Origin: an uncultured Chlamydiae bacterium
Lineage (GTDB): Bacteria > Chlamydiota > Chlamydiia > Chlamydiales > JAJFMA01
Reading direction: 5' to 3'
NCBI GenBank assembly: GCA_963713615.1
Contig: CAVQMM010000001.1
Coordinates: 960,001 to 1,024,000, forward strand
DNA: 64,000 nt
A program made the position numbers and the translations under genes. Positions 12,049-12,799 of the stretch are shown here, piece by piece. The notes below the pieces were generated by a model, which saw only the letters and a program-made list of their open reading frames with translations, searched no databases and was not told the origin of the DNA. How positions within the stretch are numbered: the stretch's first letter is position 1; every line of letters begins with the position of its first letter.

Positions 12049-12799
12049 GAGGTAATTGCAAAATTATTTGAGCCCTTGAGAATCGATTCTCAGAAAAAAA
12101 GGTTACCTTTTTATGCGAGAAGGCGATTCTGGAGAGCTCAAATGGCATGGCACTATCTAGTCTGGAGAGACAGGCTTTTACCCCTTTCTAGGCCCGAAGG
12201 GTCGATATTGCAACAGGCCGGGGCATCGCCCCATAGGCCTCAACCTAACAGGTCTTTTGAGCTTATATCTCAATGACTTAGGACTTCACAATCGTATCTC
12301 GGCGCGCAGCGCTTTGGAGTGCGGTCGCTTGCGACCGCTTTTCGTTCCTTGGGACGGCAATGCTAAACGGCATTGTATGGATTCGTCGAAGGCTGCATGT
12401 ACTAACTATTTTACCCTTAGGGAATTATAGTAATGCCGTTGCACACGACCGTCGCAAGGAACCCAAAGCGGTCGCAAGCGACCGCACTCCAAAGCGCTGC
12501 GCGCCGAGATACGATTGTTAGGCTTAGGTTGAGGCCTATGGGGCATCGCCCTGGTATATGCCAAGGGAGATTTCGCAGTCTAAAGGACTGCTACAAGACG
12601 CCAGTTTACAAACACCATTTATGCATGCGCTTTATGGCAGCCCTACAGGCTGCTAAAACCGTTTTGGCATATACCATGGCGATGCCATGGCCTGTTGCAA
12701 TATCGACCCTTCGGGCCTGGGAAGGGAATGACTCTCTCTTCACCGGCATCCGATTTTCAGGAAATTGACTTCGAAGAATCGGACTTCTGCAATTACCTC
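12049..12799. mobile_element. MITE W copy 1 (TIR GAGGTAATTGCA), carrying REP doublet Y and one X insertion
   Basis: TIRs GAGGTAATTGCAAAA / TTCTGCAATTACCTC; closely similar to 32992-33743 and 55135-56206. Confidence 0.88.
12232..12540 (+). mobile_element. MITE X (309 bp), IS4/IS231-type ends, 11-bp TSD GGGCATCGCCC
   Basis: 17-bp TIR CATAGGCCTCAACCTAA; direct repeats at 12221-12231 and 12541-12551. Confidence 0.9.

Follow-up and report, generated by a model that had tools for sequence, protein, structure and literature searches.

Members of the IS231 subgroup of the IS4 family are described in Table 1 of PMC2266710 as having ends of the form CAT-------AA--TAA and direct repeats of 10–12 bp, and in that 2008 review the subgroup is almost confined to the Bacillus cereus group. 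The target consensus of IS231A is tabulated as GGGNNNNNCCC (PMC2577343), and IS231 is reported to mobilise MIC231 in trans (PMC6199540). IS186 has a highly specific palindromic G/C target (PMC5009759), and ISRm22 of Sinorhizobium meliloti, an IS4-family element, is reported with all of its copies in REPs (PMC1525189); REP-targeting insertion sequences and REPs inside other repeats are covered in two reviews (PMC3184786, PMC3733652). REP targeting by IS4-family elements, palindromic targets and trans-mobilised cassettes have all been published already, and the chemistry of the element described here, referred to as X, is not new.

X was found in a 64-kb window (the whole stretch of DNA that was analysed) corresponding to G000:C1:960001-1024000, G000 being the source genome. 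It is a genuine feature, well accounted for as a new MITE of the IS231 type whose targeting of a REP is almost absolute. X shares with IS231A and MIC231 the end signature, an 11-bp duplication, a palindromic G/C target, a modular cargo and, on our reading, mobilisation in trans (PMC2266710, PMC6199540, PMC2577343). It differs in its host, which belongs to the Chlamydiales, whereas the IS231 subgroup is mainly described from the B. cereus group (PMC2266710), and the IS231-subgroup end signature is extended here to environmental Chlamydiales. It also differs in size (309 bp, compared with ~700 bp–3 kb for MICs), in its cargo, which is a non-coding REP doublet in contrast to the passenger coding sequence of MIC231, and in its target, which is mostly TGGC-N3-GCCA inside one REP and not the GGG(N5)CCC of IS231A.

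ISRm22 resembles X in being an IS4-family element located at the axis of a REP palindrome with some recombinant flanks, but it is autonomous, belongs to the IS4Sa subgroup and is reported at ~9–10 copies with a 6-bp repeat (PMC1525189), whereas X is non-autonomous, has ~80 copies and an 11-bp repeat, and carries a REP cargo. IS186 of E. coli (IS4/IS231) likewise uses a specific palindromic G/C target in both orientations; the target is described as GGGG(N6/7)CCCC at dispersed sites, about half of them in genes, as opposed to a repeat family (PMC5009759). As in the REPIN/RAYT systems (PMC3337134), the two REPs involved here, REP A and REP B, form inverted doublets, each arrayed beside its own short Y1 gene, but many of the doublets are carried as cargo inside TIR elements (REP B within X and within a sister MITE, Y; REP A within an element termed W), and X itself is not a REPIN. 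In the open literature, which leaves subscription papers aside, no account was found of a chlamydial X, a REPIN-carrying MITE, or a REP-specific IS66 or IS1634.

Element X and its host W

The sequence-only reading had claimed four copies of X of exactly 309 bp with 17-bp TIRs, each within its own 11-bp direct repeats, and all were found at the coordinates and on the strands claimed. The features of the window are as follows:

12049..12799, + strand: W copy 1, the outer host, containing a REP A doublet
12221..12231: 11-bp target duplication of X copy 1, left copy, which is the centre of REP A arm 1
12232..12540, + strand: MITE X copy 1, 309 bp, 17-bp TIRs
12288..12518: cargo of X copy 1, an inverted REP B doublet (X positions 57-287)
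12541..12551: 11-bp target duplication of X copy 1, right copy
12674..12690: empty REP A arm 2 in W copy 1, a 17-bp palindrome
32992..33743, + strand: W copy 2, with a 4-bp flanking duplication; arm 1 (33161-33177) is empty
33312..33620, + strand: MITE X copy 2, in REP A arm 2, with an 11-bp duplication
42455..42574 (left boundary approximate), + strand: older X-family variant, truncated, abutting a degenerate REP A
55135..56206, + strand: W copy 3, with a 4-bp flanking duplication
55318..55626, − strand: MITE X copy 3, in REP A arm 1
55775..56083, − strand: MITE X copy 4, in arm 2 of the doublet that holds X copy 3

By form X is a MITE: it is short, bounded by TIRs, multicopy, flanked by a target duplication and has no transposase inside. 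The window copies differ pairwise at 1–3 positions in five pairs (copies 1 and 2 at 2). All four combinations of arm and orientation occur, as had been noted, and these are real because the three host W elements share one orientation. The window has one further TIR, a fifth, which lies at 42558-42574 and forms the right end of the older variant; there the TIR is identical and the hairpin cargo is different. X folds as a single long hairpin (z = −23.5 versus 100 shuffles) owing to the inverted REP doublet that makes up its positions 57-287; an Rfam search returned nothing but a sub-threshold chance match. Two adjacent, very large ORFs in the window, 34378-42447 (2689 aa) and 42816-50225 (2469 aa), gave no Pfam or NCBIfam match.

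W is ~432 bp long when empty, has 12-bp TIRs and houses most REP A doublets, the doublet spacing being 137 bp. It inserts in short GGAC/GTCC tandem repeats and also forms tandem arrays with a period of 473 bp that are nearly free of X; no autonomous partner of W was found. A separate inverted-repeat element of ~130 bp occurs as a frame-preserving insert in ISAs1-like transposase ORFs (G000:C1:383753-384982 and 2974153-2975031), and a copy of it follows W copy 2 in the window from about 33770.

The G000 assembly is 99.1% complete in three contigs and is not closed; contigs C2 and C3 look chromosomal, and neither of them duplicates C1 beyond 1.2 kb. The exact TIR occurs 172 times in G000, as 77 pairs and 18 singles, with 56 pairs exactly 309 bp long. 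Counting as full elements those with both inner X ends present, TIR mismatches being allowed, gives 80 copies, and a perfect 11-bp duplication flanks 69 of them; the other 11 comprise seven with hybrid arm flanks, three that are off by 1–2 bases and one degenerate copy outside REP A. Not counted here are ends that lack a partner and three aberrant forms (275, 343 and 390 bp), which were left in place and so add a few apparent empty half-sites to the occupancy figures below. The 70 copies comparable at 309 bp differ on average at 1.09 positions (maximum 6), and the expansion is therefore recent.

Among 401 genomes of the order, the exact X TIR is present in only two, G000 and G139. G139 also holds, at L127 (G139:C62:5856), a 57-bp element that consists of two IS right ends and whose flanks are mirrored on both sides. 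In G000, a 275-bp variant with two right ends (C1:650486-650760) and a 343-bp variant with two left ends (C1:3139116-3139458), both with perfect 11-bp duplications, likely arose by exchange between the internal inverted repeats.

The REP A target

Across the genome, 79 of the 80 X copies lie at one base position, the centre of the hairpin REP A, where the insertion point is the symmetry axis of a 7-bp stem. The strict landing in the same REP hairpin tip that had been read from the four window copies is thus a genome-wide rule, and X represents an unusually clean, countable case of REP-directed insertion by an IS231-type element. The single copy off REP A (C1:1654684) has a degraded duplication, and its site ends in the same GCCA-TGG half; the copy carries 8 substitutions and a 4-bp gap. 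Once X had been removed in silico, 79 of 289 REP A sites proved to have been occupied, compared with 0 of the 265 KGGC-N3-GCCM sites elsewhere (Fisher p 1e-25). The core common to the X sites is the symmetric, ~17-bp CCAKGGC-N3-GCCMTGG.

The GGG(N5)CCC target of IS231A, cited in the sequence-only reading, is matched exactly by copy 1, alone among the four, but does not hold as a rule for the genome. The 79 insertions in REP A comprise 63 in T..A stems (TGGC-N3-GCCA), 15 in G..C stems and one in a mixed stem, and no full X was found at any of the 451 GGG-N5-CCC sites outside REP A; the IS231A consensus does not predict X sites.

The pattern could also arise from a loose preference for G/C palindromes if selection had purged insertions elsewhere. 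The purging would have had room to act, with 241 of the 265 non-REP matching 11-mers in long ORFs, and same-TIR elements elsewhere do lie in varied GGG..CCC sites. However, none of the 24 non-REP sites outside ORFs of at least 120 aa holds X (p 0.001), and the X copies are too young and uniform for full purging of non-essential insertions, which makes this account highly improbable.

The data do not separate sequence readout, hairpin shape and protein tethering as the basis of targeting, because REP A copies are too uniform (no position class was significant in a positional analysis of REP A variants) and the seven long non-REP hairpins with the same core, all empty (p 0.2), are too few to be informative. 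Targeting of the same transposase through DNA shape (a cruciform), or through tethering by a REP A-bound protein such as the Y1 protein at C1:3243412, would fit the placement of X exactly on the stem axis, the presence of X in all four 'inner-inner' forms of REP A, whose perfect stems are longer, the about equal use of T..A and G..C stems (63/226 versus 15/38, p 0.18), and the absence of X from every one of the 19 exact matches to the commonest 11-mers that lie outside REP A. Against it, the array of 11 REP A cores beside the Y1 gene itself, located downstream only of a 170-aa Y1 ORF (L022), is uninterrupted; the seven empty hairpins argue weakly in the same direction. In addition, relatives within the IS231 group reportedly recognise palindromic sequence (PMC5009759, PMC2577343), and the related elements at L118 and L077 use a non-palindromic tandem-repeat target with an 11-bp duplication. 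We therefore regard shape or tethering as unlikely, and recognition of the symmetric ~17-bp sequence by the transposase as likely. The L022 ORF scores 57.3 in the IS200/IS605 model (cut-off 55) and 21.9 in the RAYT model (cut-off 80), and is only likely to be the RAYT for REP A.

Independent insertion and secondary recombination

The 74 intact W elements include 35 that are empty, 7, 8, 12 and 11 in the four classes of arm and orientation, and one that is doubly filled. W copies that are 0–2 bases apart, even identical ones, differ in X state, and the insertions are therefore independent; in support of this, X state is not shared more among similar W elements than in 1000 label shuffles (p 0.25–0.97). 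Both arms and both orientations are represented within each of the two main X haplotypes. The duplications of X follow the local REP A variant, as had been seen in the window, and fall into five 11-mer classes genome-wide. The inference of recent, highly site-specific transposition is upheld by these results, and the comparison of SNPs among copies, proposed as a means of telling independent insertion from gene conversion, points to the former.

One or a few insertions of X followed by passive spread, through gene conversion or transposition of W, would draw on repeat recombination, which is common here: the 4-bp flanks match in 43 of 111 paired W elements and lack a match in 68, and hybrid flanks are found at 8 of 79 occupied versus 1 of 210 empty sites. 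Such a history is very unlikely in view of the tracking of local variants by the duplications, the distribution of each major haplotype over arms and orientations, and the negative permutation test, and passive spread is rejected as the main route of X multiplication. Recombination acts secondarily and accounts for the minority of hybrid sites only.

Double occupancy is scarce. Among 110 REP A doublets, 52 are empty, 57 singly filled and one doubly filled, compared with 7.9 doubles expected under independence (p 0.003); the sole doubly filled doublet of the genome is that of window copies 3 and 4, which form a direct pair. At four to five loci X stands between two outer arms, the spacer being gone and the duplications mismatched; two of these loci keep the 4-bp flank of W itself, so the event was local. 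We infer that doubly filled doublets are likely unstable, with direct pairs likely collapsing by recombination and inverted pairs, which would form a long palindrome, likely being lost. Target immunity may play a part but is not needed as an explanation, since the collapse products exist. There are also four inner-inner REP A triplets with empty outer arms, for which this reading accounts only in part; similar REP hybrids are described as products of REPIN excision (PMC3337134). Contigs from public runs are fragmentary; pieces of the X–REP A junction are present in X1–X3, but no contig spans the locus, and no empty allele was seen.

Transposase, cargo and nested elements

The TIR of X fits the end signature of the IS231 subgroup, and its 11-bp duplication falls inside the 10–12-bp range (PMC2266710), in agreement with the initial assignment to IS4/IS231-type ends. 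Building on these ends, the duplication, the site and the independent insertions, all established for X, and on the autonomous IS4 elements with the same ends that exist elsewhere, we consider it about 75% probable that X is a non-coding IS231-ended element, a shell with REP B cargo, that has recently been mobilised in trans, many times independently, by an IS4 DDE transposase of IS231-like type that likely reads CCAKGGC-N3-GCCMTGG. By analogy with its family, the transposition would be of the cut-and-paste type.

The moving enzyme had been placed 'elsewhere', which is borne out in that X contains none and IS4 elements with the same TIR occur in other samples, but not by the G000 assembly. The suggested genome search for the X TIR flanking a DDE transposase gave no cognate gene in G000, and a relaxed search for TIR pairs gave no helper element. 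There are 31 matches to PF01609 in G000, and the 10 loci inspected all had other ends or none; tblastn of G000 with five related transposases gave best E values of 0.2–0.7 (27 matches for the positive control), and a scan with NF033592 gave nothing above the cut-off. The helper gene was probably lost from the G000 lineage or lies in unassembled DNA. That a resident, non-cognate enzyme of G000 (IS1634, ISAs1, IS701-like or Y1/RAYT) moves X instead has in its favour that the transposases found in the assembly are of these kinds; their ends and duplication lengths differ from those of X, however (6 bp for IS1634, 8 bp for IS66), and we consider this barely credible. To our knowledge, no HUH enzyme makes 11-bp duplications at CAT ends.

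A full-length IS4 transposase is carried by six of the 35 metagenome loci with the exact TIR (L085, L087, L090, L091, L095 and L109). These autonomous elements measure 1507–1669 bp (five of the six measured), those at L087 and L091 being cut by contig ends. The L085 transposase, P0002, has the residues D135, D206 and E342, with spacers of 71 and 136, together with Y335-R338-E342-K349. It thereby conforms to the IS4-family patterns D(60-110)D(100-150)E and Y(2)R(3)E(6)K for a single-ORF transposase, so that the IS4 DDE and YREK features are present in a protein from a same-end element and not in X itself. P0002 scores 194.8 bits in NF033592 (cut-off 115), and it and the L090 protein, the two scanned, both exceed the cut-off. 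In a transposase tree from which sequences below 300 aa and one duplicate were left out, and which contains no named reference elements, the six form one clade (100/100), with L085 and L090 as sisters (92/92, not starred).

The L085 and L090 elements are inserted in REP-A-like palindromes. The duplications are 11 bp at L090 and 10 bp at L095, while L085 and L109 have no matching pair. The sequence common to X and the autonomous elements is only 17–19 bp long, and their right end departs from that of X at position 17; none of those found is therefore the direct parent of X. A second clade (L047, L115 and L118; 100/99) has slightly different ends and an 11-bp tandem-repeat target. Related ends unite MITEs and autonomous IS4 elements across the order into a family (G003, G023, G026 and G012; L047, L077, L115 and L118), and at L047 an IS and a MITE lie side by side with 11 bp between them. 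P0001, a related candidate transposase, is only 25–29% identical to its best plasmid hits, mostly IS4 elements of Bacillus and Clostridium. About 36 database proteins are 44–59% identical to P0002, one of them named as from Chlamydiales, and relatives of P0002 occur in 12 of 400 genomes of the phylum (one genome unscored). These relatives, which differ in target between REP-A-like palindromes, GGG..CCC palindromes and a tandem-repeat 11-mer, provide a panel of transposases for studying target reading in the IS4 family.

The cargo of X is an inverted REP B doublet, 87–95% identical to six REP B units that flank a gene at L025, three on each side; this gene scores 83.7 bits in NF047646 (RAYT; cut-off 80). 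REP B is a RAYT-associated REP, its inverted arrays flanking a RAYT gene. The sequence-only reading missed this nesting, in which a second REP doublet is enclosed by X as its shell. In older copies of the X family the shell is the same but encloses a different hairpin, and cargo has therefore been exchanged. Free REP B doublets are also present outside X in the window, at 28880-29105 and at 61565-61785, the latter following a W-like left end at 61514.

Mobile elements are seen here to supply each other's insertion sites. In G000, 17 of 18 IS66 copies lie in REP B, 13 of these inside X, and 17 of the 18 have an 8-bp duplication; all eight IS1634 copies lie in REP B, three inside X, with 6-bp duplications. 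IS66 is commoner in X-borne REP B (13/~158) than in REP B elsewhere (4/216; p 0.005). Each new copy of X brings in two further REP B sites, and it is in such sites that IS66 and IS1634 insert. IS66 haplotypes are shuffled over positions and orientations and are present outside X too, which indicates separate insertions; transposition of X::IS66 as one unit is consequently not needed, a few such events being possible. The form at L086 is an X::IS66 identical at 99.5% and is not an independent case. Forms of 2612 bp and ~2.2 kb with X ends, considered as the autonomous parent, proved to be X with IS66 or IS1634 inside its cargo. The TIR of MITE Y differs from that of X at two positions, 24 of 29 Y ends lie in REP B, and its duplications are 10 bp where intact; Y also carries REP B (examples at G000:C1 2840976-2841259 and 3191161-3191437). 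X and its passengers occupy 60 kb, with no entry into the 265 other matching sites.

These nested elements may form a relay of niches, in which TIR shells capture REPINs and each shell makes the next landing site (tandem repeat, W, REP A, X, REP B, then IS66, IS1634 and MITE Y), and in which, within a chlamydial IS231-like clade, ends 2–3 bases apart go with different near-absolute repeat targets. We offer this scheme tentatively, as rather doubtful in its full form; if true, it would provide a natural panel for the target-specificity determinant of IS4 transposases, including strictly REP-targeting IS66 and IS1634.

Elsewhere in G000, a sequence near C1:1257000 resembles what we take to be a group II intron end, and a third Y1 transposase gene (L021, G000:C1:3873041-3873382) has its own class of hairpin repeat on both sides.
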